DNA from: Leptospira sp.
GTDB taxonomy: Bacteria > Spirochaetota > Leptospiria > Leptospirales > Leptospiraceae
NCBI GenBank assembly: GCA_034439575.1
Contig: JAWXAQ010000029.1
Location: 1 to 64,000, forward strand
Direction: 5' to 3'
Length of the DNA stretch: 64,000 bases
How positions within the stretch are numbered: position 1 is the first letter of the stretch; each line of letters opens with the position of its first letter. Positions 48,149 to 57,171 of this stretch are shown piece by piece. A program made the position numbers and the translations under genes. The notes under the pieces are model-generated. The model was not told where the DNA came from. It saw nothing but the letters and a program-made list of their open reading frames with translations, and did no database searches.

Positions 48149-49321
48149 ATGTTTGAACATTTTGAAACAGATGCTGTACGCATCCAAACGCCGAGAACTG
48201 AGCAAAAGGAACATTCGACTCCTTTATTTATGACTTCTAGTTTTATATTTGATAATGCGGAAGAAGCAAGAGCGATTTTTGCTGATGAAATCCAGGGAAA
48301 TATGTATTCCCGTTTTTCAAATCCAAATACGACGGAAATGATAGATAAACTGGCGCGAATGGAGAAAACAGAAGACGGAGTTCCTTTTGCTTCTGGAATG
48401 GCCGCTGTTTTTAATTCCATGTTCGCATTGTTAAAGTCAGGTGATCATGTTCTCGCTTCCAGATCAATTTTTGGTTCAACACATCAAGTTTTAACTCAAA
48501 TTTTTCCAAGATTTAACATTGGTTGTTCGTATGCTGATATCGGTAACACCAAACAATGGGAAGAAGGTGTGAACCCAAATACAAAAATTGTTTTTATAGA
48601 AACACCTTCAAACCCAGCATTAGACATTATAGATTTGGAATGGATCGCTGGCTTTTGTAAACAGCGCAATTTAATCTTAATTGTAGATAATTGTTTTTGC
48701 ACACCTTATTTGCAAAGACCAGCTGAGTTTGGGGCAGATTTGATTGTTCATTCTGGAACAAAGTTTCTTGATGGGCAAGGACGTGTAATCGCTGGTGCAG
48801 TCTTAGGTCGTAAAGATTTAATAAAAGAAATTCGAATTATTGCCAGGGCGACGGGACCATCCTTATCACCAATGAACGCATGGCTTATATCAAAAAGCCT
48901 AGAGACACTCGCGATTCGCATGGACAGACATTCAGAAAATGCTCATAAATTATCCGAATTTTTAGAAAGTCATTCTGAGATTGAACTTGTCAAATATCCT
49001 TTTTTACCTTCTCATCCTCATTATATACTTGCAAAAAAACAGATGAAGTTAGGTGGTGGCATTGTCACCTTTGTCGTGAAAGGCGGAGTTTCCCGAGGTG
49101 CCAGATTTTTGGATGCACTGAAATGGTTCTCACTTACGGCTAATCTAGGTGATTCAAGAACTACAGTGACTCATCCGGCTTCCACGACTCACGCAAAGCT
49201 AAAAGAAGAAGAAAGGCTTGCTGTGGGAATACTGCCTGGACTCATCCGAGTATCTGTCGGTTTAGAACATATTGATGATATTATCGCAGAGGTAGATCAG
49301 GCACTTTTGCACTCAAAGTAA
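48149..49321 (+). CDS. metZ: O-succinyl/O-acetylhomoserine sulfhydrylase (trans-sulfuration PLP enzyme)
   Basis: EHSTPLFMTSSF, YSRFSNP, HSGTKFLDGQGR, ANLGDSRT. Confidence 0.85.
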   Translation: MFEHFETDAVRIQTPRTEQKEHSTPLFMTSSFIFDNAEEARAIFADEIQGNMYSRFSNPNTTEMIDKLARMEKTEDGVPFASGMAAVFNSMFALLKSGDHVLASRSIFGSTHQVLTQIFPRFNIGCSYADIGNTKQWEEGVNPNTKIVFIETPSNPALDIIDLEWIAGFCKQRNLILIVDNCFCTPYLQRPAEFGADLIVHSGTKFLDGQGRVIAGAVLGRKDLIKEIRIIARATGPSLSPMNAWLISKSLETLAIRMDRHSENAHKLSEFLESHSEIELVKYPFLPSHPHYILAKKQMKLGGGIVTFVVKGGVSRGARFLDALKWFSLTANLGDSRTTVTHPASTTHAKLKEEERLAVGILPGLIRVSVGLEHIDDIIAEVDQALLHSK

Positions 49322-49332
49322 GAGTGCATTTT

Positions 49333-49809
49333 TTATTTCGAATAATTCAAGTTATTGCATTTTTCACAAATTTCTTTTGGTATGATACCAACTTTCATAA
49401 GCAAACCAAAGAAAAAACAACCGGCACACCATCCTACAAAGGATTCAAGTGAGGCAAAAAAAACGAGTATGCTGAGTACAATTCGATAAATATGGAATAA
49501 ATCTAATTGGAATAATATAATCGATGTTAATGCGAATATAAATCCAATCAATTGAGCAAATCGTTTCGGTGGGCCAGCTGTTGGAATAAATGAGATTCCC
49601 AATTTTGGAACCAGATAACGAGACGTAATTAAGGCAAATGGTTCAAACTTCGGACCATAGGTGACTCTAGCCGTAAAACCAAAAAGTAAAATGCCAAGAG
49701 TAATTATATTTGGAAAAAATAGACTTATGAGTCCAAGAATTACAACCGTAGATGCGACGATGCGGGTAGCATTTTCATTTACAACTTCAGGATAATCGCC
49801 AAATTTCAT
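49333..49809 (-). CDS. DUF4395-like membrane protein
   Basis: VNENATR, PPKRFAQLIG, LESFVGWCAGC, C-terminal CEKC. Confidence 0.8.
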   Translation of the reverse strand: MKFGDYPEVVNENATRIVASTVVILGLISLFFPNIITLGILLFGFTARVTYGPKFEPFALITSRYLVPKLGISFIPTAGPPKRFAQLIGFIFALTSIILFQLDLFHIYRIVLSILVFFASLESFVGWCAGCFFFGLLMKVGIIPKEICEKCNNLNYSK

Positions 49810-49890
49810 ATATGCCCTCTCTTTAGAAAGATTTGAATCGAGGGGATATTTTGCAAGAAAAATTCGTTTTTGCAGAGGAAAAGTTTATTT

Positions 49891-49912
49891 TATTGACATA
49901 TTTCTGTTAATA
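49891..49912 (+). promoter_or_regulatory. TTGACA -35 element inside an inverted repeat (putative operator)
   Basis: TATTGACA-N6-TGTTAATA in the divergent DUF4395/rhodanese intergenic region. Confidence 0.5.
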
Positions 49913-49962
49913 CGTGAAAAGTTCTTCAAATTCAAGCCATTTGTTTACTAGGAATTCGAAAC

Positions 49963-50916
49963 GTGTATAAAATCTCAGCATTTAATAAATTCAGAAACAG
50001 AGTGATTCTACTACTTGGACTGTTTTTCTGCCTCGTGTGTTTGGATGCGAAGGAGAATCACCCATCTAATTTTAAAGTTTGGGATTTATCTTCTTCATGG
50101 GTCATTTCCCCCTTACAAGCGCTAAATCTTGAGAAAAATGGTGCCAAGAAAGTGGATGCCAGAGGACTTCATCTTCGATTTTTACCACCATTGAAATCTT
50201 CTGTAAATATGAATTGGGAAGAGTTCACATTTGAAAAACAATCTGAAAAAGGGAAACTGTTAGGTAAGGAAATTGCCTTAAAAAAATTGAAAAAAATTGG
50301 TATAGAAACAAATTCCACCATACTTGTATTTGGTGATAGTCTGGATGGTTGGGGGGAGGAAGGACGAATCGTTTGGATGTTAAGAGAACTTGGAATTCAA
50401 TCTTCCTATTTAGTCGATGGCGGAGTGAAACATTTCAATCACTTAAAAAGCAAAAAAGGGGACGAAAGTAAATCTCAAATTCAAAATTTTCATTCGAAAA
50501 GTAAAATCGTAAGTTCTTTCAATATCGAAGCAGAAACATTGTCCGAACTAGTAAAACAGAATAGTCAAAAAATTGAAATTCTTGATGTAAGAGAGAAACG
50601 AGAATTTTTGGGTGATACTCCTTATGGAGAATCTAGAAGAGGCCATATATCAGGCGCTAAATGGCTCTTCTATCGTGAATTTATTGATGAATCTGGTTTT
50701 ATAAAGTCGAGCGAAGAAATTATAAAACTACTTCATAAAAAAAACATTTCATTAAACGTGACTCTTGTCTCATATTGTACGGGAGGTGTTCGCTCTGCCT
50801 TTACGACTGCGGTTTTAGTATCTTATGGATTTAAGGCTCTCAATTATTCTGGATCTATGTGGGAATGGACCTCAAAAGATATTACAAACTACCCAACAAT
50901 TACTGGTGATTTGTGA
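49963..50916 (+). CDS. Exported tandem-domain rhodanese / sulfurtransferase
   Basis: Signal peptide, GRIVWML...LVDGG, LDVRE..EF.G, GHISGA, active site YCTGGVRS, YSGSMWEW. Confidence 0.88.
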   Translation: MYKISAFNKFRNRVILLLGLFFCLVCLDAKENHPSNFKVWDLSSSWVISPLQALNLEKNGAKKVDARGLHLRFLPPLKSSVNMNWEEFTFEKQSEKGKLLGKEIALKKLKKIGIETNSTILVFGDSLDGWGEEGRIVWMLRELGIQSSYLVDGGVKHFNHLKSKKGDESKSQIQNFHSKSKIVSSFNIEAETLSELVKQNSQKIEILDVREKREFLGDTPYGESRRGHISGAKWLFYREFIDESGFIKSSEEIIKLLHKKNISLNVTLVSYCTGGVRSAFTTAVLVSYGFKALNYSGSMWEWTSKDITNYPTITGDL

Positions 50917-52241
50917 AAACATATAAAATATTATTAACATTCTCTGCATTTCTGATAGGCCTTTCTTTTATTTACATTTACAAACAATATTATAATCCCA
51001 TATCAATTGAAGAAGTTTTTCCAGGTAAACCATGGAGCAAAACTATAGAACAACTCCCTGATCTCAAAGGTGTAGGTCCACCGAGAGCTGAAAATTGTGG
51101 AAAGTGTCACACTGAAATTTATCGTGAATGGAAAACTTCGACCCATGCTCATGCAAACTCTGATTTACAATTTCAGGCGGAATTAAGCAAACCAAGTTCT
51201 CCGAAGTGGATTTGTTTAAATTGTCATATCCCGATTCAAAACCAAAGAGAGACTATCATCAATTCATTGCAAGGTGGAGATTATTTTAAACCAATAGAAG
51301 TTACGAATACAAAATTTGATCAAGCGATGAAAGATGAAGGTGTAACGTGCGCTACTTGTCATGTGAGGCTTGATGAAAGAGGTGAGTCCGTAGTCATCAC
51401 GGCGAATGGATTTTCGTCCCCCCCTCATCCCATCCAATTGAATCCAAAACTTCTCCAGAATAGGTGCTTGGACTGTCATAATGAAACTTATACTCTAAAC
51501 AAATCACTTGTTTGTTACTTTCAAACTGGCGATGAGTTACAAGAAGGGAAAAAACATTTTCCTGATAAAAATTGTGTCAATTGTCATTTACCAGAAATCA
51601 GTCGTTCCATAGTCAAAAATGAATTTAAGAAACCGATTCGAAATTCCCACAAACATGCGTTCATTGGTGGTGGTGTTCCTAAAGAATTTAATTTATATAA
51701 AGATCAAATACTGGGAGGTTATGTAACTGGCGTTACATTATTAAGCTTTGATTATGCGAATCACGAAATATCTGTTAAATATCAAAATGCAAATGCTGCT
51801 CATTACGTTCCTACGGGCGATCCAGAAAGATTTTTACGATTAGAATTTATATTTTTGGATGAAATGAAGAAAGTTCTTTCAAAAAAAGAAGATACCATTG
51901 GGCAAATATGGCAATGGGAACCACAAGCTAAACTCATGAGCGAAAATAGACTTCGGCCAAAAGAAATTCGCGAATGGAGTGAATCAAATTTAAATGAAAA
52001 TGTACGTTATGTCATATTTCGTATCACACATGTTAAATTAAAAAATATAACTTCGGAATATATGCAATTAAATGCAAATTCTGCCTTAGAAAGTTATAGA
52101 GAAAAATTAAAAAATATAAAAGAATTTTATCCACATAGTTCAATTGTTTTAGAAAGTATGATAGATTTAAAAACAAAAAAAGTGAATGATACAAAATTGA
52201 CTGATCTATTTTTAAGGAATCAATTCCGACGTGGAGAATAA
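50913..52241 (+). CDS. Membrane-anchored pentaheme c-type cytochrome
   Basis: Five CxxCH motifs (CGKCH, CLNCH, CATCH, CLDCH, CVNCH) and an N-terminal TM/signal. Confidence 0.9.
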   Translation: MKTYKILLTFSAFLIGLSFIYIYKQYYNPISIEEVFPGKPWSKTIEQLPDLKGVGPPRAENCGKCHTEIYREWKTSTHAHANSDLQFQAELSKPSSPKWICLNCHIPIQNQRETIINSLQGGDYFKPIEVTNTKFDQAMKDEGVTCATCHVRLDERGESVVITANGFSSPPHPIQLNPKLLQNRCLDCHNETYTLNKSLVCYFQTGDELQEGKKHFPDKNCVNCHLPEISRSIVKNEFKKPIRNSHKHAFIGGGVPKEFNLYKDQILGGYVTGVTLLSFDYANHEISVKYQNANAAHYVPTGDPERFLRLEFIFLDEMKKVLSKKEDTIGQIWQWEPQAKLMSENRLRPKEIREWSESNLNENVRYVIFRITHVKLKNITSEYMQLNANSALESYREKLKNIKEFYPHSSIVLESMIDLKTKKVNDTKLTDLFLRNQFRRGE

Positions 52242-52950
52242 AATCATTGTTATCATACCTGTTCGTAATGAAGAAGAAAATTTGCCATTAGTAATCGGTG
52301 AACTATTGAATTTGCAATTATTTAGTTCTTCCGACATTATTCTTGTAGATAATGGATCAACTGACGCTTCTTCTGCGATAGGAAAATCCTTCGGAGTCAA
52401 TGTCTTATTTGAGAATAATTTGGGATACGGCAGTGCTTGTTTGGCGGGTATTTCAGAAATTAAAAAGCAATTATTAAATCCAGATTGTGTTTTAATTATG
52501 GATGGCGATGGCGCAGATGATCCAGATGACATTCACAAATTAATTAAAATGTACAATGCGAATTCTACTGATCTTGTGATTGGCTCTAGAGTCTTAGGAA
52601 AAAGAGAAAAGGGTTCCTTAAGTTTGATCCAAAGGTTTGGAAATTGGCTTACCTGCTCACTAATACTTTTATTTTATCAAAGAAAATTTACAGATCTTGG
52701 TCCATTGCGACTTATCAAATACAGTTCTCTATTAAGAATGGGTTTGATAGATAAAACTTGGGGATGGAATATCGAAATGCAGATTCGAGCCTTACAAGAA
52801 AAAATGAATGTAATAGAAATCCCAGTCAATTATAGAAAGAGAAAGTTTGGTAAATCAAAAATTTCTGGAACCCTTGGGATGGCAATGCGAGTGGGAATAA
52901 AAATTTTATATACTTTCTTTAATCTAACACTAAATAAACGAAACAATTAA
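52231..52950 (+). CDS. GT2 glycosyltransferase (polyprenyl-phosphate sugar synthase-like)
   Basis: IIPVRNEE, VDNGSTD, GYGSAC, MDGDGAD, VIGSR, WGWNIEMQ, SKISGT. Confidence 0.88.
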   Translation: MENKIIVIIPVRNEEENLPLVIGELLNLQLFSSSDIILVDNGSTDASSAIGKSFGVNVLFENNLGYGSACLAGISEIKKQLLNPDCVLIMDGDGADDPDDIHKLIKMYNANSTDLVIGSRVLGKREKGSLSLIQRFGNWLTCSLILLFYQRKFTDLGPLRLIKYSSLLRMGLIDKTWGWNIEMQIRALQEKMNVIEIPVNYRKRKFGKSKISGTLGMAMRVGIKILYTFFNLTLNKRNN

Positions 52951-52958
52951 TATCGGTT

Positions 52959-54242
52959 ATGACAACTTTTTGGATTTTAGGATATGCGTTTTACTTATAC
53001 CTGATTGCAACCTATCTTCAAAGAGATAATTTGTTTTCGGTCATTGGATGTTTCACTCTTGCTTTTAGTATTTACTTTTTTTTGATTCCTATTGTGAAAA
53101 AAAATAGTATACGCGTGATATTTTATGCCGCTATACTTTTCCGTTTTGTCACACTTTTCCATCTGCCAACGTTAAGTGATGATTTCTATCGATTTCTTTG
53201 GGATGGTTATTTGGTTTTTTCAGGCGAAAATCCCTATCTTAATACACCACAATATTGGATGAATTCAAATTTGCTAACGAATACACCAAATGAATTGGAT
53301 CTATTATATGATAAAATGAATAGTAGAGAATTTTTTTCGGTGTATCCGCTTGTTTCTCAAGCTTTTTTTGTTATCCCTTGGATATCTGGTTTTCAGACTA
53401 TTGAAGCACAATCATTGATTCTAAAACTAATACTATTTACATTTGAAATTGGAAATTTATTTTTGTTGAAACAGAATCATCCGAAGAGCATCAACTATTG
53501 GTTATATGCTGGAAATCCCTTATTGATATTGGAATCTGTCACAGAAATTCATCTTGAATCCATACTAACATTCTTTATGTTATTATTACTCTCAAGAGGG
53601 GTTCAAATTCGAAAATTCATTTTTTATTTGTTTTTTGTAATCTTAATTCATATAAAAATAAATTTAATTTTTTTAGCACCGGCTTTTTTCAAACGATTAA
53701 ATAAAATTCATAAGTTCAGTTTTGTTCTTATCTCTTTGCTTTGTATTTTTTCCATTTTTCTTACAGTATTTTATAATTTGGGTGACCAAACAAGAAGTGG
53801 AATAGGATTATTCTTTCACTCATTTCGCTTCCATTCTCTCATGGAGATGCCAATTTATTTAATTTTATTCTTAATTCCTAAATTCCAATACTTATCAGGA
53901 TTTATTTCGTTAATTTTGGGCGGAATTTTATATTTATATCTACTTAGAATCAAAACTATAGATGATAATGGTTCGGTATTTTTGGGCTTACTGATATTAT
54001 ATTTATTCTCGCCCGTTGTGCATCCATGGTACATACTTCCTGTCTTCGCATTAAGCATAAGAAGTTCTTCATTTGAAGTTATGATCACAGTATTAAGTGT
54101 TTTTGCCGCATTCTCGTATATTTTTTATTTCAATAATTCAATGATCATACAAATTTTATTTTCTCTCGTAGAGTCTATGTTTGTTGTAGGATATGTATGG
54201 ATAAAGAAGCCCTCATTATTTTCGCAAAAAACCCAATCTTAG
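52959..54242 (+). CDS. Polytopic GT-C-type (GT87-like) membrane glycosyltransferase
   Basis: LSDDFYRFLWDG..G.NPY loop, SVYP, SPVVHPWY, about 10 TM segments. Confidence 0.72.
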   Translation: MTTFWILGYAFYLYLIATYLQRDNLFSVIGCFTLAFSIYFFLIPIVKKNSIRVIFYAAILFRFVTLFHLPTLSDDFYRFLWDGYLVFSGENPYLNTPQYWMNSNLLTNTPNELDLLYDKMNSREFFSVYPLVSQAFFVIPWISGFQTIEAQSLILKLILFTFEIGNLFLLKQNHPKSINYWLYAGNPLLILESVTEIHLESILTFFMLLLLSRGVQIRKFIFYLFFVILIHIKINLIFLAPAFFKRLNKIHKFSFVLISLLCIFSIFLTVFYNLGDQTRSGIGLFFHSFRFHSLMEMPIYLILFLIPKFQYLSGFISLILGGILYLYLLRIKTIDDNGSVFLGLLILYLFSPVVHPWYILPVFALSIRSSSFEVMITVLSVFAAFSYIFYFNNSMIIQILFSLVESMFVVGYVWIKKPSLFSQKTQS

Positions 54243-54799
54243 GTAAAGTTAAAACTCGCCTGGCTTCCAAAATTGGCGATAAACACACATTAACTGTTTA
54301 TTTAAAATTTCTCGAAATGGTGAATGAATTTACCATTAAACTTTCGTTAAAAAAGGCTGTATATTGGGCAGATGGAATTCCAACCGATCAACCATTCCCA
54401 TCAGATATTTACTCACATCATAACCAAGTGGACGGGGATTTAGGACTTCGTATGTGGACTGCATTTAATACCGAATTTGAAACAAAGGATAGAGTTTGTA
54501 TCATTGGTACTGATTGTATCGAATTAAGTGCAGAATTGATTGAGATAAGTTTTTTAAAATTGAAAGAATATGATTTAGTTATAGGTCCAGCAATGGATGG
54601 CGGTTATTATTTGCTAGGTACCAAAAATAATTATATAGAATTGTTTGAGAATATGGAGTGGAGTGTGCCTTCGGTTCTGGACATAACATTAGATAGAGCT
54701 TCTCAACTCAATCTTTCTGTGTACCTTTTACCAACATTGAGAGATGTCGATACCTTGGAAGATTTGATGGATATGAAAAATAAATTCCTTATTGATTAA
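54197..54799 (+). CDS. DUF2064 / TIGR04282-type transferase (CofC-like fold)
   Basis: IIFAKNP..GKVKTRL, Q.DGDLGLRM, IIGTDC, GPAMDGGYYLLG, DVDT..DL. Confidence 0.85.
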   Translation: MDKEALIIFAKNPILGKVKTRLASKIGDKHTLTVYLKFLEMVNEFTIKLSLKKAVYWADGIPTDQPFPSDIYSHHNQVDGDLGLRMWTAFNTEFETKDRVCIIGTDCIELSAELIEISFLKLKEYDLVIGPAMDGGYYLLGTKNNYIELFENMEWSVPSVLDITLDRASQLNLSVYLLPTLRDVDTLEDLMDMKNKFLID

Positions 54800-55337
54800 C
54801 GATTTTGTATTCTATTCTTCTTTGTAATTTTTTATCATCCAAGTTCAATCCATGTTTTAACGGACGTGAGTCGCCATAAAATAGACGATGAATTCTTTCG
54901 GTCTTAATCCCGTGAATCACTAAGAATCGTTCTACTTCTAAAGTTCTTTTTTCACTCAAAAGAATGTTAGCTTGCGAATTTCCTTCGTCCCAGGCATGAC
55001 CATATATATATAAAACTTCTAAAGGATTGTTGGTTAAATGATCTGAGATTTTTTGCAAAACTAGAAGATCTGAATTTTGAATTTGGATGGACTTTTTTGG
55101 AAAATAAAAAATACCTTCTCTTGCAAATTCCAACTGTTTAGTTTTTTTAGCAATGTCTTCATCCTGGTAATCATCGGCGTAAAGAAATGAATTTTGATAA
55201 TTAACAATGTAAGTTAAAAACGAAAATACAGTTATAAAAAGATAGATTAAACGTAATAAGAACTTCACATATCTATTTTCGGATATTCGCGTTGCACAAG
55301 TAATGCTCAGAAAAAAAAATGTCAAATAATATGTCAC
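54789..55337 (-). CDS. OmpA/MotB C-terminal domain protein
   Basis: IYGHAWD..N..LSEKR..V..FL...GI...R....YGDSRP...RRIE. True start may be GTG at 55268. Confidence 0.78.
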   Translation of the reverse strand: MTYYLTFFFLSITCATRISENRYVKFLLRLIYLFITVFSFLTYIVNYQNSFLYADDYQDEDIAKKTKQLEFAREGIFYFPKKSIQIQNSDLLVLQKISDHLTNNPLEVLYIYGHAWDEGNSQANILLSEKRTLEVERFLVIHGIKTERIHRLFYGDSRPLKHGLNLDDKKLQRRIEYKIVNQ

Positions 55338-55376
55338 TTATGCTTTGTATGAGGATTTTTTTGAAAGGTTTAGAAT

Positions 55377-56393
55377 ATGGATCTTAAGAGTTTGGCTGAA
55401 AAATTAGGTGGAGAATGGAATGGTGATCCAAATCTTCAAATAACAGGAATTAAAGATTTAGAACATCATTCGCCAGTGCATCAAAATTCGATTTATTATA
55501 TAGCTTCCAAAAAGTATCTCACAAAACATCCGAAATACAAAGATGTAAAAATTGCACTAACGATCGCTAGCCTTTCAGATAAATTCCAAAATGCGATCAT
55601 TGTACCTGAACATATATCGAAGGTGAAGTTCATACAGGCCGTTTCTTTATTTGAAAAGAAACCAGAATATGAATTACGAATCTCTGAACGAGCCAGTATC
55701 CATCCTACTGCAAAAATTGGAAAGAACGTCACAATCATGGAGAATGTCGTAGTCCAAGAAAACGCGACCATTGGAGATAATTGCATTCTTTATCCAAATG
55801 TTGTTTTGGAATCCGGAGTTGAGATAGGGGAGAATACTATCTTAAAATCAGGCGTTGTTATTTATTATAACTGTAAACTTGGAAAAAATAATTTAATCCA
55901 TTCAAACACTGTGATTGGAGCCGATGGTTTTGGATTTTATGATTACGGTGGAATCCGATATAAAGTACCTCAGATTGGAAACGTCGTGATTGGTGATGAT
56001 GTAGAAATGGGTGCAAATTGTACGGTCGATCGTGCCGCTTTAGAGGAAACAACAATCGGCAACTTTACGAAGTTTGATGATCATGTACATATTGGTCATA
56101 ACTGTAGAGTAGGAAATTATGTTTATATTGCTGGAGCCACAGTTCTCGCAGGCTCCGTGACAATAGAAGATGGTTGCATATTAGCAGGTCAATCCGCTGT
56201 CGCCGAACATTTAACGATGCGTAAAGGTTCTATTTTGATGGGGCTATCTGGTTTGACTGAAGAAGCGAAGGAAAAGACCGCTTATTTTGGCATACCAGCC
56301 AGGCCAGCTTTGGAAATGCATAGAATCAATTCTTCTTTGGGTAGTTTGCCTGAATTAATTAAAAAGTATTTGAAACGGAAATCTGAAAATTAA
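55377..56393 (+). CDS. lpxD: UDP-3-O-acylglucosamine N-acyltransferase
   Basis: Hexapeptide repeats, [33 protein letters not shown]. Confidence 0.93.
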
Positions 56394-56823: not shown

Positions 56824-57171
56824 TTATTTTTTTGATTCAGCGATCCAGTTTTTCCAAATTTCGGGCACATAACCGACAGTAGCTCTTTTCCCATCTCGAA
56901 CAATGGGTGTTTTGAATAAAAGTGGATTTGCCAATAACATTTCTTCTTTATCATATACCATATACTTGAGATTTTTATCTTCATAGACTTTGGATTCGGT
57001 GTCGATTAGCGAATCTAAGGTGACGGAATTAAGAATGGATCTAAGTTCTCCCTTACTCAATTCTTTTTCCGAAAGATTTATAAATTGGAAAGGAATTCTA
57101 CGTTCTTGAAAGTAGAGTTGTGCTTTTTTACTTTCTTTGCACTTTTTTGTGCCAAAGATCTGAAGGTTCAT
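56824..57171 (-). CDS. ArsC/Spx/MgsR family protein
   Basis: IFGTKKCKESKKA, PLLFKTPIV...ATVGY. Confidence 0.85.
   Translation of the reverse strand: MNLQIFGTKKCKESKKAQLYFQERRIPFQFINLSEKELSKGELRSILNSVTLDSLIDTESKVYEDKNLKYMVYDKEEMLLANPLLFKTPIVRDGKRATVGYVPEIWKNWIAESKK

Follow-up and report, generated by a model that had tools for sequence, protein, structure and literature searches.

In a 64,000-nucleotide stretch of Leptospira sp. DNA (contig JAWXAQ010000029.1; the whole stretch is referred to as the window), we found a five-gene operon that joins an exported rhodanese and a pentaheme cytochrome c to two glycosyltransferases (GT2 and GT-C) and a DUF2064/TIGR04282 protein. The five genes probably serve a single cell-envelope pathway that has not been described, most probably an ArsS-type system for lipid-linked glycosylation to which sulfur redox chemistry has been added. 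With moderate confidence, we regard the operon, a divergent DUF4395 gene and the unlinked ArsS and TIGR04169 genes as the Leptospira version of such an extended ArsS-type ('arsenosugar-type') system.

Operon structure and conservation

The five plus-strand genes reported in the first-pass annotation were confirmed in their coordinates, junctions and families by open reading frames, junction sequences, and profile and structure matches (Table 1). At the rhodanese/cytochrome junction, the rhodanese stop codon overlaps the GTG start of the cytochrome gene in the sequence GTGA (50913–50916). The cytochrome and GT2 genes overlap by 11 nt (52231–52241), the GT2 and GT-C genes are separated by 8 nt (52951–52958), and the GT-C and DUF2064 genes overlap by 46 nt (54197–54242). 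A promoter and terminator scan yielded 21 promoter-like sites, compared with 30 expected, and the operon contains no recognisable flippase gene. With their overlapping or abutting ends and kept order, the five genes probably form one unit.

Table 1. Genes of the operon and its divergent neighbour (positions in the window)
Gene	Position	Strand	Profile match
DUF4395 membrane protein	49333..49809	-	PF14340, 109 bits
Rhodanese	49963..50916	+	
Pentaheme cytochrome	50913..52241	+	
GT2	52231..52950	+	
GT-C	52959..54242	+	
DUF2064/TIGR04282	54197..54799	+	

The five-gene order recurs in 11 of the 12 fetched loci of the same genus, and among 29 short same-genus loci, which overlap in genomes with the fetched set, DUF4395, cytochrome, GT2 and GT-C were present in all and the rhodanese in 28; here and below, related genomes are not independent samples. 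The arrangement is not due to chance. The DUF4395 gene, which is divergent from the operon, adjoins the cytochrome locus in 29/29 of these loci, and its product, with approximately four hydrophobic segments and a C-terminal CxxC...CxxC pattern (Cys 128, 131, 148 and 151), is a probable member of the operon's system. Cytochrome orthologues were found in 27/27, 21/24, 11/22 and 2/5 genomes of the genera g1, g19, g17 and g21, respectively. The order rhodanese–cytochrome–GT2 is kept in four Leptospiraceae genera and in all 10 fetched loci from g19, g17 and g21. No GT-C was found downstream in the g19 loci with the query used, and TIGR04282 and ArsS sit on other contigs in both g19 genomes checked.

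Predicted functions of the encoded proteins

As judged from its sequence, the rhodanese is an exported tandem protein with an inactive N-terminal domain and a catalytic C272 in the C-terminal domain. PF00581 matches the C-terminal domain only (residues 193–304), and solved two-domain sulfurtransferases align over residues ~100–305 (best E 1.2e-14). The active-site loop is CTGGVRS, in which C272, the sole Cys outside the signal peptide, is invariant among 14 orthologues, as are T273, G274, G275, R277 and S278. The remaining Cys residues, at positions 23 and 26, lie within the N-terminal hydrophobic segment (14–32) of a signal peptide with a possible lipobox. No ExtH model was among the NCBIfam matches listed for this protein, and its score against the NF045521 model was 27 bits (cut-off 145).

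The cytochrome contains exactly five CXXCH motifs and one extra Cys, C201. It is anchored in the membrane at its N-terminus and has a helical heme cap and, at its C-terminus, an Ig-like beta domain (model pLDDT 94.5). Comparison of its family profile with solved structures gave matches to 5ze8 (E 2.7e-22) and to MccSep, 9wt8 (E 1.3e-11), and 5ze8 was also the best Foldseek match of the model (E 2.4e-15, TM 0.55/0.62). The protein thus belongs to the c552/MccSep superfamily and is homologous to Thermochromatium tepidum cytochrome c552 and to Geobacter MccSep (ExtKL), which bears out the comparison with Geobacter ExtH/ExtKL drawn in the first-pass annotation, although the score against the NCBIfam ExtKL model was 19.3 bits (cut-off 250). 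MccSep is a pentaheme protein of the periplasm that reduces polysulfide and selenite and has a His/Cys heme, a heme type typical of sulfur-converting cytochromes (PMC13510729). When invariant columns were examined across 34 homologues, the heme-ligating Cys column was kept, and C201 is predicted to ligate the catalytic heme on its distal side. Asp303 occupies the MccSep selenocysteine position in a profile column alignment.

The GT2 protein matched PF00535 (78.6 bits), and its top NCBIfam matches were AglJ, ArnC, PpgS and dolichyl-phosphate hexose transferase, all below the equivalog cut-offs. Among solved structures, it is related to ArnC and Pyrococcus DPMS, and its full-length identity with the GT2 half of DUF2064–GT2 fusions in the sister family is 40%. 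It is predicted to be a DPM1/AglJ/ArnC-like polyprenyl-phosphate sugar synthase of the cytoplasmic face. An assignment to TIGR04283 was rejected (32.4 bits, cut-off 182). Nothing matched GT-C in the local Pfam scan; its annotation in a precomputed collection is PF26314, and its relatives carry PF09594. This protein has approximately 11 hydrophobic segments and an invariant loop, DDFYRFLWDG, with D75, R78 and D82 invariant among 20 homologues. Alignment of its model (pLDDT 86.9) using VIA-align matched ALG3 (Z 23.8), GPI-MT-I (Z 22.3), PimE (Z 19.6) and ALG6 (Z 18.2). It is an enzyme of the PimE/ALG3/GPI-mannosyltransferase-I type, predicted to work at the periplasmic face with a polyprenyl-phosphate-monosaccharide as its donor. 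The DUF2064 protein exceeded the TIGR04282 cut-off (178.1 bits, cut-off 134), matched PF09837 (90.6 bits) and, weakly, CofC, and has 3cgx as a solved relative (E 1.5e-22). It is a cytoplasmic enzyme of CofC/MobA-like GT-A fold with no hydrophobic segment, and is predicted to be a nucleotidyl- or glycosyl-transferase acting ahead of GT2.

Association with ArsS-type genes

The first-pass annotation correctly stated that TIGR04283 and ArsS are absent from the window; ArsS (425 bits) was found on another contig of the same genome, adjoining TIGR04169, and both were above their cut-offs. In this genome, TIGR04283, SelD and ArsM did not reach their cut-offs. ArsS, the radical enzyme with which arsenosugar synthesis begins, adenosylates dimethylarsenite (PMC13598754 for the adenosylation). 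In all five g17 loci, a DUF4395–TIGR04169–ArsS string headed by DUF4395 is divergent from rhodanese–cytochrome–GT2–GT-C, and at the single g21 locus, ArsS, TIGR04169 and TIGR04282 share ~9 kb with these four operon genes. TIGR04169, ArsS, a PiT permease, TIGR04282, GT2 and GT-C are contiguous on one strand in a sister-family genome (G058), and among 24 genomes of that family, 13 had both ArsS and TIGR04282, none had ArsS alone, 3 had TIGR04282 alone and 8 had neither. Furthermore, one strand of a metagenomic locus (L189) carries an ArsR–rhodanese fusion, the cytochrome, PiT, an ArsM-like methyltransferase, TIGR04169, ArsS and TIGR04282; the cytochrome is near TIGR04282 at a second such locus (L223) and is followed by GT-C at a third (L226).

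In Cytophagales, orthologous GT2 (37–47% identity), GT-C and TIGR04282 genes are clustered, and in 10 loci the gene for an exported rhodanese (NF045521, 180–195 bits) immediately precedes TIGR04282. Among 151 genomes sampled, TIGR04282 was present in 41/41 genomes with the NF045521 rhodanese, which was found in 0/91 genomes without TIGR04282; the two were adjacent (<1 kb) in 19/41 genomes of the Cytophagales sample. The cytochrome was found in 0/79 Bacteroidota GT-C loci.

The first-pass annotation had proposed that periplasmic sulfur or metalloid chemistry is tied to lipid-linked glycosyl transfer, in a thio-sugar or metalloid pathway coupled to a glycoconjugate. The link itself was supported, recurring in four Leptospiraceae genera, the three metagenomic loci and Cytophagales. 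The free-standing thio-sugar form was not: ArsS and TIGR04169 are present in the genome and adjoin the operon in two sibling genera, so that the system looks more like an extended ArsS-type set.

In such a system, TIGR04282 and GT2 would activate an unusual sugar and then attach it to polyprenyl phosphate; this sugar would most likely be a 5-deoxy-5-substituted ribose unit, derived from the 5΄-deoxyadenosyl adduct made by ArsS. After flipping, an envelope acceptor would receive the sugar from GT-C. In the same compartment, the rhodanese may carry sulfane sulfur, and the His/Cys-heme cytochrome may cleave or form an S–S bond, with electrons drawn via its membrane anchor. This sulfur chemistry might target the acceptor or the heteroatom of the sugar (As, S or another element), for example, by thiolation or reduction.

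Alternative explanations

It is possible, although we consider it rather unlikely, that two modules, a sulfane-sulfur redox pair and an unrelated envelope glycosylation system, are independent of each other and have a common transcript in Leptospiraceae alone; the pair would then be self-contained and periplasmic, acting on polysulfide, thiosulfate or selenite for detoxification or sulfur acquisition. The modules are indeed apart in the sister family, where the cytochrome orthologue lies megabases away from the DUF2064–GT2 fusion gene, with the rhodanese alongside in four genomes and the cytochrome alone in three (L044–L046). Most metagenomic loci also have the cytochrome alone: near 75 distant homologues, with flanks of at least 3 kb on both sides in only 27, we found DUF2064 twice, GT-C once, GT2 never and a rhodanese-domain ORF seven times, and no other neighbour recurred widely across the 75 loci. 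Because so few of them have these genes nearby, the cytochrome can work alone. Three metagenomic homologues lie in metal/redox stress islands with ArsR–rhodanese fusion, MerR/MerT, OsmC or LTXXQ genes; G020, a genome of the same genus, has the other four genes but no rhodanese; and metZ, the gene of a sulfide-using enzyme, borders the locus in the window and in 2/12 same-genus loci. However, independent modules fit less well with a cytochrome–GT2 junction kept across four genera at 42–61% cytochrome identity, with the rhodanese–cytochrome pair directly beside ArsS/TIGR04169 in g17 and g21, with the cytochrome inside the ArsS–TIGR04282 operon at L189, or with a non-orthologous exported rhodanese that tracks TIGR04282 in Cytophagales. 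The first-pass annotation counted usual separation of the redox pair from the GT2/GT-C/DUF2064 trio in other genomes as evidence against its own proposal, and such separation is partly seen, namely, in the sister family.

An ArsS-independent thio- or seleno-sugar modification of the envelope, in which a rhodanese persulfide, reduced or re-formed by the cytochrome, would give its sulfur to the polyprenyl-phosphate-linked sugar or to the acceptor and yield an S-linked glycoconjugate, seems improbable to us. Against it, TIGR04282 accompanies ArsS in 13/13 ArsS-positive sister-family genomes, ArsS adjoins operon genes in g17, g21, G058 and L189, the operon's genome has no SelD above the cut-off, and none of the five proteins matched a known thio-sugar enzyme family. 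In its favour are the ties of an exported rhodanese to GT2/GT-C/TIGR04282 in two phyla, the retained Cys column of a His/Cys heme (PMC13510729) and a GT-C active site that would face the same compartment. Finally, we see very little likelihood that GT2 and GT-C glycosylate the rhodanese or the cytochrome (Ppm1/Pmt type) or build a general envelope glycan with an ordinary nucleotide sugar from TIGR04282, since, although GT-C enzymes include protein mannosyltransferases (Pmt4 ranked lower here, Z 13.4) and the operon proteins are far more divergent than flanking genes (32–66% versus 70–87% identity), as is common for surface-related genes, the top structural matches are lipid- or glycan-directed (ALG3, GPI-MT-I, PimE) and the ArsS and TIGR04169 linkage would be left unexplained.

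Comparison with known systems

The extended ArsS-type system preferred here resembles Geobacter sulfurreducens ExtH/ExtKL (MccSep) in placing an exported rhodanese-like protein beside a pentaheme cytochrome, but its setting consists of glycosyltransferases and ArsS rather than an outer-membrane conduit. The Leptospira cytochrome shares with MccSep the helical heme cap and C-terminal Ig-like domain, and its C201 aligns with Cys239, the heme-2 ligand of MccSep (PMC13510729). Unlike MccSep, it has an N-terminal membrane anchor, and Asp303 replaces the catalytic selenocysteine/cysteine, so that it lacks the family-defining site. By both profile and fold, the closest solved structure is T. tepidum c552 (PDB 5ZE8), which has the H..PTG.P.R beta-domain motif and the Cys column in common with the Leptospira protein but Ala at the Asp303 position. 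We know of no link between c552 and glycosyltransferases.

The pairing of a GT2 sugar-lipid synthase with a GT-C that takes the lipid-linked monosaccharide as donor outside the cytoplasm is that of two-step lipid-linked glycosylation (Ppm1/PimE, DPM1/ALG3, ArnC/ArnT and GtrB/Gtr-type), although in Leptospira such a pathway is probably linked with TIGR04282, ArsS, rhodanese and cytochrome. The 'rhoda_near_glyco' (NF045521) cluster of Cytophagales/Bacteroidota has orthologous GT2 (up to 47% identity), GT-C (~30%) and TIGR04282 (~43%) proteins and likewise an exported rhodanese with a CxxGxRS loop, and ArsS was present in 5/5 genomes tested; in contrast to Leptospira, its rhodanese is single-domain and not orthologous, and the cytochrome is missing. 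Upstream in the Bacteroidota loci are an FAD pyridine-nucleotide-disulfide oxidoreductase (31/79) and a NapH-like polyferredoxin (35/79), and 58/79 loci have a processive GT2. To our knowledge, arsenosugar synthesis has been established experimentally only for its first steps (ArsM and ArsS). Relative to the arsenosugar-type set (ArsS/TIGR04169/TIGR04282/TIGR04283; Synechocystis ArsM–ArsS), the Leptospira genome lacks an ArsM above the cut-off and its GT2 is DPM1/AglJ-like rather than TIGR04283, but it shares TIGR04282, ArsS and TIGR04169, all above their cut-offs, and adds GT-C, an exported rhodanese and a multiheme cytochrome.

Gene organization of the operon and its surroundings

The first-pass annotation had grouped five reading frames into one operon, encoding an exported rhodanese, a pentaheme cytochrome, a GT2, a GT-C-like protein and a DUF2064 protein (TIGR04282), and all five were recovered on the forward strand at exactly the positions claimed. 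Successive genes are joined, in order, by a GTGA stop/start overlap (50913-50916), an 11-nt overlap, an 8-nt gap and a 46-nt overlap. Consensus scans of the region from 49200 to 55600 returned 21 promoter-like sites, compared with 30 expected from shuffled sequences, and 4 terminator-like sites, compared with 2.9 expected; the promoter scan was uninformative on internal promoters. The anatomy of the operon and its conservation, which form the basis of this reading, suggest that the five genes are co-transcribed.

Two genes downstream were also recorded. On the opposite strand, an OmpA-family gene points towards the DUF2064 gene and shares the final 11 bases of that gene; it was a kept neighbour across 12 fetched loci of the same genus, and no copy was seen in the 10 loci from the genera g19, g17 and g21. 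An Spx/ArsC-family gene, whose product scored 56.6 bits (under the 75-bit cut-off), was located approximately 2 kb downstream of the operon in 12/12 of the fetched same-genus loci.

Coordinates of the operon genes and of other features mentioned in the text (L-numbers denote fetched loci)
Feature	Location	Strand	Length
Rhodanese	window 49963-50916	+	317 aa
Cytochrome	window 50913-52241	+	442 aa
GT2	window 52231-52950	+	239 aa
GT-C	window 52959-54242	+	427 aa
DUF2064 (TIGR04282)	window 54197-54799	+	200 aa
DUF4395 membrane protein	window 49333-49809	-	
OmpA-family gene	window 54789-55337	-	
Spx/ArsC-family gene	window 56824-57171	-	115 aa
TIGR04283-like GT2 locus	window's genome (G000), contig C30:188809-192414 (L002)		
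DUF2064-GT2 fusion	L067:7859-9325		~490-500 aa
DUF2064-GT2 fusion	L068:7848-9350		~490-500 aa
DUF2064-GT2 fusion	L070:7881-9371		~490-500 aa
ArsR-family HTH-rhodanese fusion	L189:5277-5960		
ArsR-family HTH-rhodanese fusion	L202:2315-2977		
ArsR-family HTH-rhodanese fusion	L207:808-1479		
ParE-toxin-like small ORF	L072:10020-10316		
MOSC-domain protein	L072:11667-12464		

Conservation in Leptospiraceae

The cytochrome was found in 36/36 same-genus genomes, and the five-gene order was kept in 11 of the 12 fetched loci. Among 29 short loci from this genus, a set that shares genomes with the first, the divergent DUF4395 gene, the cytochrome, the GT2 and the GT-C were present in all 29, and the rhodanese was present in 28, the exception being genome G020. 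Identities between species were 32-66% for the operon proteins, compared with 68-88% for the flanking lpxD, metZ, ABC transporter and Spx/ArsC-family genes (loci L048-L059) and 70-87% for lpxD, metZ and the Spx/ArsC-family gene. The operon is therefore diverging far more quickly than the genes around it.

We then surveyed 100 further genomes at the family level, using E ≤ 1e-40 as the orthologue threshold. Cytochrome orthologues were found in the genera g1 (27/27), g19 (21/24), g17 (11/22) and g21 (2/5), and in 0/22 genomes from ten other genera. The 10 fetched loci of g19, g17 and g21 all kept the order rhodanese-cytochrome-GT2. In g17 (5/5 loci), a GT-C follows the GT2, and a string of genes for ArsS (the radical SAM enzyme TIGR04167), TIGR04169 and DUF4395 diverges from the rhodanese gene; in the one g21 locus, ArsS, TIGR04169 and TIGR04282 lie within approximately 9 kb of the four genes. 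In the four g19 loci, rhodanese-cytochrome-GT2 alone was seen with the queries used, and both g19 genomes that were checked had TIGR04282 and ArsS on other contigs. For loci L238-L243, the identification of ArsS and TIGR04169 comes from tblastn searches with proteins of the window's genome as queries (51-79% identity), not from family models. In the genus of the window, DUF4395 still occupies the divergent position and TIGR04282 stands at the end of the operon.

The first-pass annotation had pointed to arsS, arsM, TIGR04283 and selD as genes to be sought in the genome, and the search was positive for one of them. ArsS (425 bits) was found together with TIGR04169 on contig C36; ArsM (best NF008823 match 58.9 bits, cut-off 263), TIGR04283 and SelD gave nothing over the cut-offs in profile searches of the window's genome. 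Both TIGR04282 and ArsS were present in 36/36 same-genus genomes.

The exported rhodanese

Pfam detected the C-terminal domain of the rhodanese alone, and solved two-domain sulfurtransferases aligned at residues from about 100 to 305. The protein showed the tandem arrangement of the TST/MST type, that is, two domains, of which the C-terminal one carries the catalytic Cys and the N-terminal one is devoid of Cys. Residue C272, in the loop CTGGVRS, is the sole Cys beyond the signal peptide and is invariant across 14 orthologues, every one of which carries a hydrophobic signal sequence at its N-terminus. Since the score against the 3-MST equivalog was 51.6 bits (cut-off 250), identity with 3-MST was ruled out. 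The score against NF045521 (rhoda_near_glyco) was 27.1 bits, under the curated cut-off of 145; a search of the window's genome with this profile returned nothing above cut-off, and no match to an ExtH model was listed for the rhodanese in NCBIfam.

A pentaheme cytochrome related to c552 and MccSep

The cytochrome contains five CXXCH motifs, at residues 62, 101, 146, 185 and 221, and an N-terminal helix that acts as a membrane anchor according to the AlphaFold model and the hydrophobic-segment analysis. A HMMER search of the whole library found 76 cluster representatives at E ≤ 1e-30 and 282 at E ≤ 1e-10. Against solved structures, the profile matched c552 of T. tepidum (5ze8, E 2.7e-22) and MccSep (ExtKL) of Geobacter (9wt8, E 1.3e-11), and for the AlphaFold model (pLDDT 94.5), 5ze8 was the only strong structural match (E 2.4e-15, TM 0.55/0.62). 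A NapC/NrfH-type quinol dehydrogenase, suggested by a weak NrfH match (24.4 vs 134 bits), was also considered and was dropped in favour of homology to c552 and MccSep.

In a 2026 publication (PMC13510729), MccSep is described as a pentaheme enzyme of the periplasm that reduces polysulfide and also selenite, in which heme 2 is His/Cys-ligated through C239 and selenocysteine U325 enters from an Ig-like domain; the same publication defines the family by five heme motifs and a Sec/Cys site, U325 in a D-G-U-P loop. The number of heme motifs in our protein agrees with this definition. In an alignment of 34 homologues, the CXXCH residues are invariant with the exception of H189 (at least 90%); further invariant positions are His 78, 172, 248 and 297 and an N..H..PTGDPERF motif. 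The single Cys outside the CXXCH motifs, C201, is kept in at least 90% of these homologues and aligns with the C239 column of MccSep, so positioned that it would probably serve as the distal ligand of heme 2. At the U325 column, the profile alignment placed neither Sec nor Cys, and the position is occupied by Asp303 (within PTGDPERF), which is nearly invariant in the Leptospira family; the score against NCBIfam NF040886 was 19.3 bits, with a cut-off of 250. Because the sulfur-type heme ligand is kept and the Sec/Cys site is absent, we treated the Leptospira cytochrome as a MccSep homologue that belongs with c552 in a sister protein family.

A second multiheme cytochrome, a weak match of 24-33% identity over residues ~60-230, was observed approximately 9-15 kb from the operon in most same-genus genomes. 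Unlike most of these genomes (G001-G036), the window's genome gave a single match to the cytochrome search.

Glycosyltransferases and TIGR04282

The GT2 belongs to PF00535, and its nearest relatives in NCBIfam and the PDB were AglJ, ArnC, PpgS, dolichyl-phosphate hexose transferases and the Pyrococcus DPMS, all under the equivalog cut-offs. Its score against TIGR04283 was 32.4 bits (cut-off 182). The best TIGR04283 match in the window's genome, a GT2 of 113 bits, is unlinked to the operon and lies beside a GH1 beta-glucosidase and a CusA/CzcA-type RND pump.

The GT-C had no match in a local Pfam scan at E 0.01; PF26314 is assigned to it in the precomputed annotation, and PF09594 is found in relatives. 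Two residues of the first extracytoplasmic loop (DDFYRFLWDG), D75 and D82, are invariant across 20 homologues. As Foldseek gave weak E-values for the model (pLDDT 86.9), all of at least 0.027 and none at 0.001 or better, the fold was decided from VIA-align, in which the best matches were ALG3 (Z 23.8, 334 residues aligned), GPI mannosyltransferase I (Z 22.3), PimE (Z 19.6) and ALG6 (Z 18.2). The model thus predicts a GT-C fold of the PimE/ALG3/PIG-M type (GT87-like) over most of the protein. The donors of ALG3, GPI mannosyltransferase I, PimE and ALG6 are polyprenyl-phosphate monosaccharides. A second GT-C paralogue, 24-30% identical to that of the operon, lies beyond the DUF4395 gene in most same-genus genomes (L049-L053, L055, L057 and L058), and the A1 profile had two matches in 35/36 same-genus genomes; the window's genome has one GT-C, and metZ occupies the position of the second.

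The DUF2064 protein matched TIGR04282 at full length (178.1 bits, cut-off 134; profile positions 1-189). Its solved relative is 3cgx, and similarity to CofC is weak.

The modules in other lineages

In the sister family of Leptospiraceae, strong cytochrome orthologues were found in 7/24 genomes: a rhodanese precedes the cytochrome in four (genus g5), and the cytochrome stands alone in three. Within 7 kb of these seven cytochrome loci, no GT2, GT-C or DUF2064 was detected. These genomes encode DUF2064 and a GT2 as one fused protein. Its GT2 domain and the operon GT2 align at full length with 40% identity, and the fusion gene lies megabases from the cytochrome, among HEAT and TPR genes. Separation of the rhodanese and cytochrome from the glycosyl-transfer genes in other genomes was the outcome that the first-pass annotation had itself named as adverse to its five-gene operon, and in this family that outcome was observed. 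The GT2 part of the fusion is DPM1/AglJ-like, and the fusion gene is preceded by genes for HEAT-repeat and TPR proteins and for an acidic protein without a Pfam match; the ORF upstream of the fusion was tried as a GT-C and rejected, being a soluble acidic protein with no similarity. Other results from this family point in the opposite direction. Across the 24 genomes, ArsS and TIGR04282 occurred together in 13, TIGR04282 alone in 3, ArsS alone in 0 and neither in 8. In genome G058, genes for TIGR04169, ArsS, a PiT permease, a 168-aa protein, TIGR04282, a DPM1-like GT2 and a GT-C follow one another on one strand.

A cytochrome-anchored metagenome scan gave 80 loci, comprising the window's own DNA (1), Leptospira-like five-gene clusters (3), a rhodanese-cytochrome pair (1) and distant homologues (75, 31-41% identity). 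Near these 75 distant homologues, 27 of which had at least 3 kb on both sides, we found a rhodanese-domain ORF in 7, DUF2064 in 2, GT-C in 1 and GT2 in 0, and clustering of the neighbours around the 75 revealed no widely recurring partner. In locus L189, a single strand carries an ArsR/BigR-like HTH-rhodanese fusion, the cytochrome, an ECF sigma factor, a PiT permease and an ArsM-like methyltransferase (165.9 bits, below cut-off), followed by TIGR04169, ArsS (429.8 bits) and TIGR04282 (128.7 bits, just under cut-off). TIGR04282 (167.6 bits) is one gene from the cytochrome in L223, and a GT-C immediately follows the cytochrome in L226. ArsR-family HTH-rhodanese fusions were seen near distant cytochromes in three loci, in one of them beside an ArsM-ArsS operon and in two amid MerR/MerT, OsmC, LTXXQ and ECF sigma genes.

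A GT-C-anchored genome scan gave one Leptospira locus and 79 loci outside Leptospira, almost all of the latter titled Bacteroidota. In these 79 loci, the GT-C was accompanied by an orthologous GT2 (37-47% identity) in 56, a NapH-like polyferredoxin in 35, an FAD pyridine-nucleotide-disulfide oxidoreductase in 31, TIGR04282 in 17, an exported single-domain rhodanese in 11 and the cytochrome in 0. The rhodanese was directly upstream of TIGR04282 in 10 of the 11 loci and corresponds to NF045521 (180-195 bits vs the cut-off of 145), which resembles the Leptospira rhodanese in its signal peptide and CxxGxRS loop. Five genomes had no TIGR04282 within 8 kb of the GT-C locus but encoded it elsewhere, and ArsS was found in 5/5 cluster-bearing genomes tested.

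In an evenly drawn sample of 151 Cytophagales genomes, whose counts are descriptive because relatives are not independent, the NF045521 rhodanese was found in 41 (40 over cut-off) and TIGR04282 in 60. TIGR04282 was present in 41/41 rhodanese genomes, and the rhodanese in 0/91 genomes lacking TIGR04282; the two were separated by less than 1 kb in 19 of the 41 and lay within 12 kb of each other in another 4.

Further features of the Bacteroidota loci were as follows. In 58/79, the GT2 and the GT-C are separated by a PgaC/CelA-like processive GT2, and the FAD oxidoreductase (CoA-disulfide-reductase-like) and the NapH/MauN-like polyferredoxin form a conserved pair upstream of the GT2 (L072, L076, L116 and others), which is possibly a non-homologous redox counterpart of the Leptospira cytochrome. 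A ParE-toxin-like small ORF lies between the rhodanese and TIGR04282 in one Cytophagales cluster, and in 8 loci a MOSC-domain protein follows TIGR04282, with a divergent Crp/Fnr regulator.

Interpretation

We regard as established the family or fold of each operon protein as assigned, the linkage of the GT2/GT-C/TIGR04282 module to ArsS in several lineages, and the repeated recruitment by this module of an exported rhodanese and, in Leptospiraceae and L189, also of a c552/MccSep-like cytochrome. On account of the tie to ArsS and of these recruited proteins, we propose a single system made up of the five genes, DUF4395 and the unlinked ArsS/TIGR04169 pair, a reading to which we give roughly even chances. 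Its main rival, in which Leptospiraceae simply transcribe two independent modules together, is favoured by their separation in the sister family, by the many solitary cytochrome homologues and by the absence of the rhodanese from G020; we consider it rather unlikely.

If the genes do form one system, the following scheme is suggested by their families. ArsS transfers the 5'-deoxyadenosyl group of SAM onto a heteroatom, the substrate of the studied enzyme being dimethylarsenite (PMC13598754). TIGR04282 and the DPM1-like GT2 would process an unusual ribose unit from the ArsS adduct and load it onto polyprenyl phosphate, and the GT-C would transfer the sugar at the periplasmic face. There, the rhodanese and the His/Cys-heme cytochrome would provide sulfane sulfur or reduce it, with either the heteroatom or the acceptor as the target.

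A more specific proposal, which we consider distinctly unlikely as it stands, is that Leptospiraceae make an envelope glycoconjugate from the 5'-deoxyadenosyl adduct produced by ArsS: TIGR04282 and the DPM1-like GT2 would load a 5-deoxy-5-heteroatom ribose onto polyprenyl phosphate, the PimE-like GT-C would deliver it outside the cytoplasm, and the rhodanese and the selenium-free MccSep-like His/Cys-heme enzyme would use sulfane sulfur or sulfide to modify the heteroatom there, for example by oxo-to-thio conversion or reduction. To our knowledge, enzymes of arsenosugar-type pathways have been assigned for the first steps only (ArsM and ArsS); the proposal, if true, would be the first assignment of later steps and would give this cytochrome class a new job. 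As a parts list for those later steps, we nominate TIGR04282 with the DPM1-like GT2 (the lipid-carrier loading pair), the periplasm-facing GT-C, the exported rhodanese, the His/Cys-heme cytochrome akin to polysulfide reductase and the DUF4395 membrane protein.

Comparison with known systems

TIGR04282 and its partners are named by association only. A full-text literature search did not find 'DUF2064' and found 'TIGR04282' in three papers, none of them with it in the title or abstract; 'DUF4395' occurred in two papers, likewise outside title and abstract, and a search combining arsenosugar, ArsS and glycosyltransferase returned nothing. The parts are of known kinds, and the TIGR04282-ArsS and rhodanese-'glyco' associations are already encoded in NCBIfam names. 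In the literature searched, we found no description of the branch with a DPM1-like GT2 and a GT-C, of the DUF4395 link or of the recruitment of a selenium-free MccSep relative. If the link holds, it would join sulfur redox to radical-SAM heteroatom chemistry and envelope glycosylation in a genus amenable to culture and mutagenesis. The Leptospira cytochrome and MccSep have in common the Cys predicted to be the sulfur-type heme ligand and differ at the Sec/Cys site of MccSep, where Leptospira has Asp303; the same link would also define a selenium-free sister family of MccSep.
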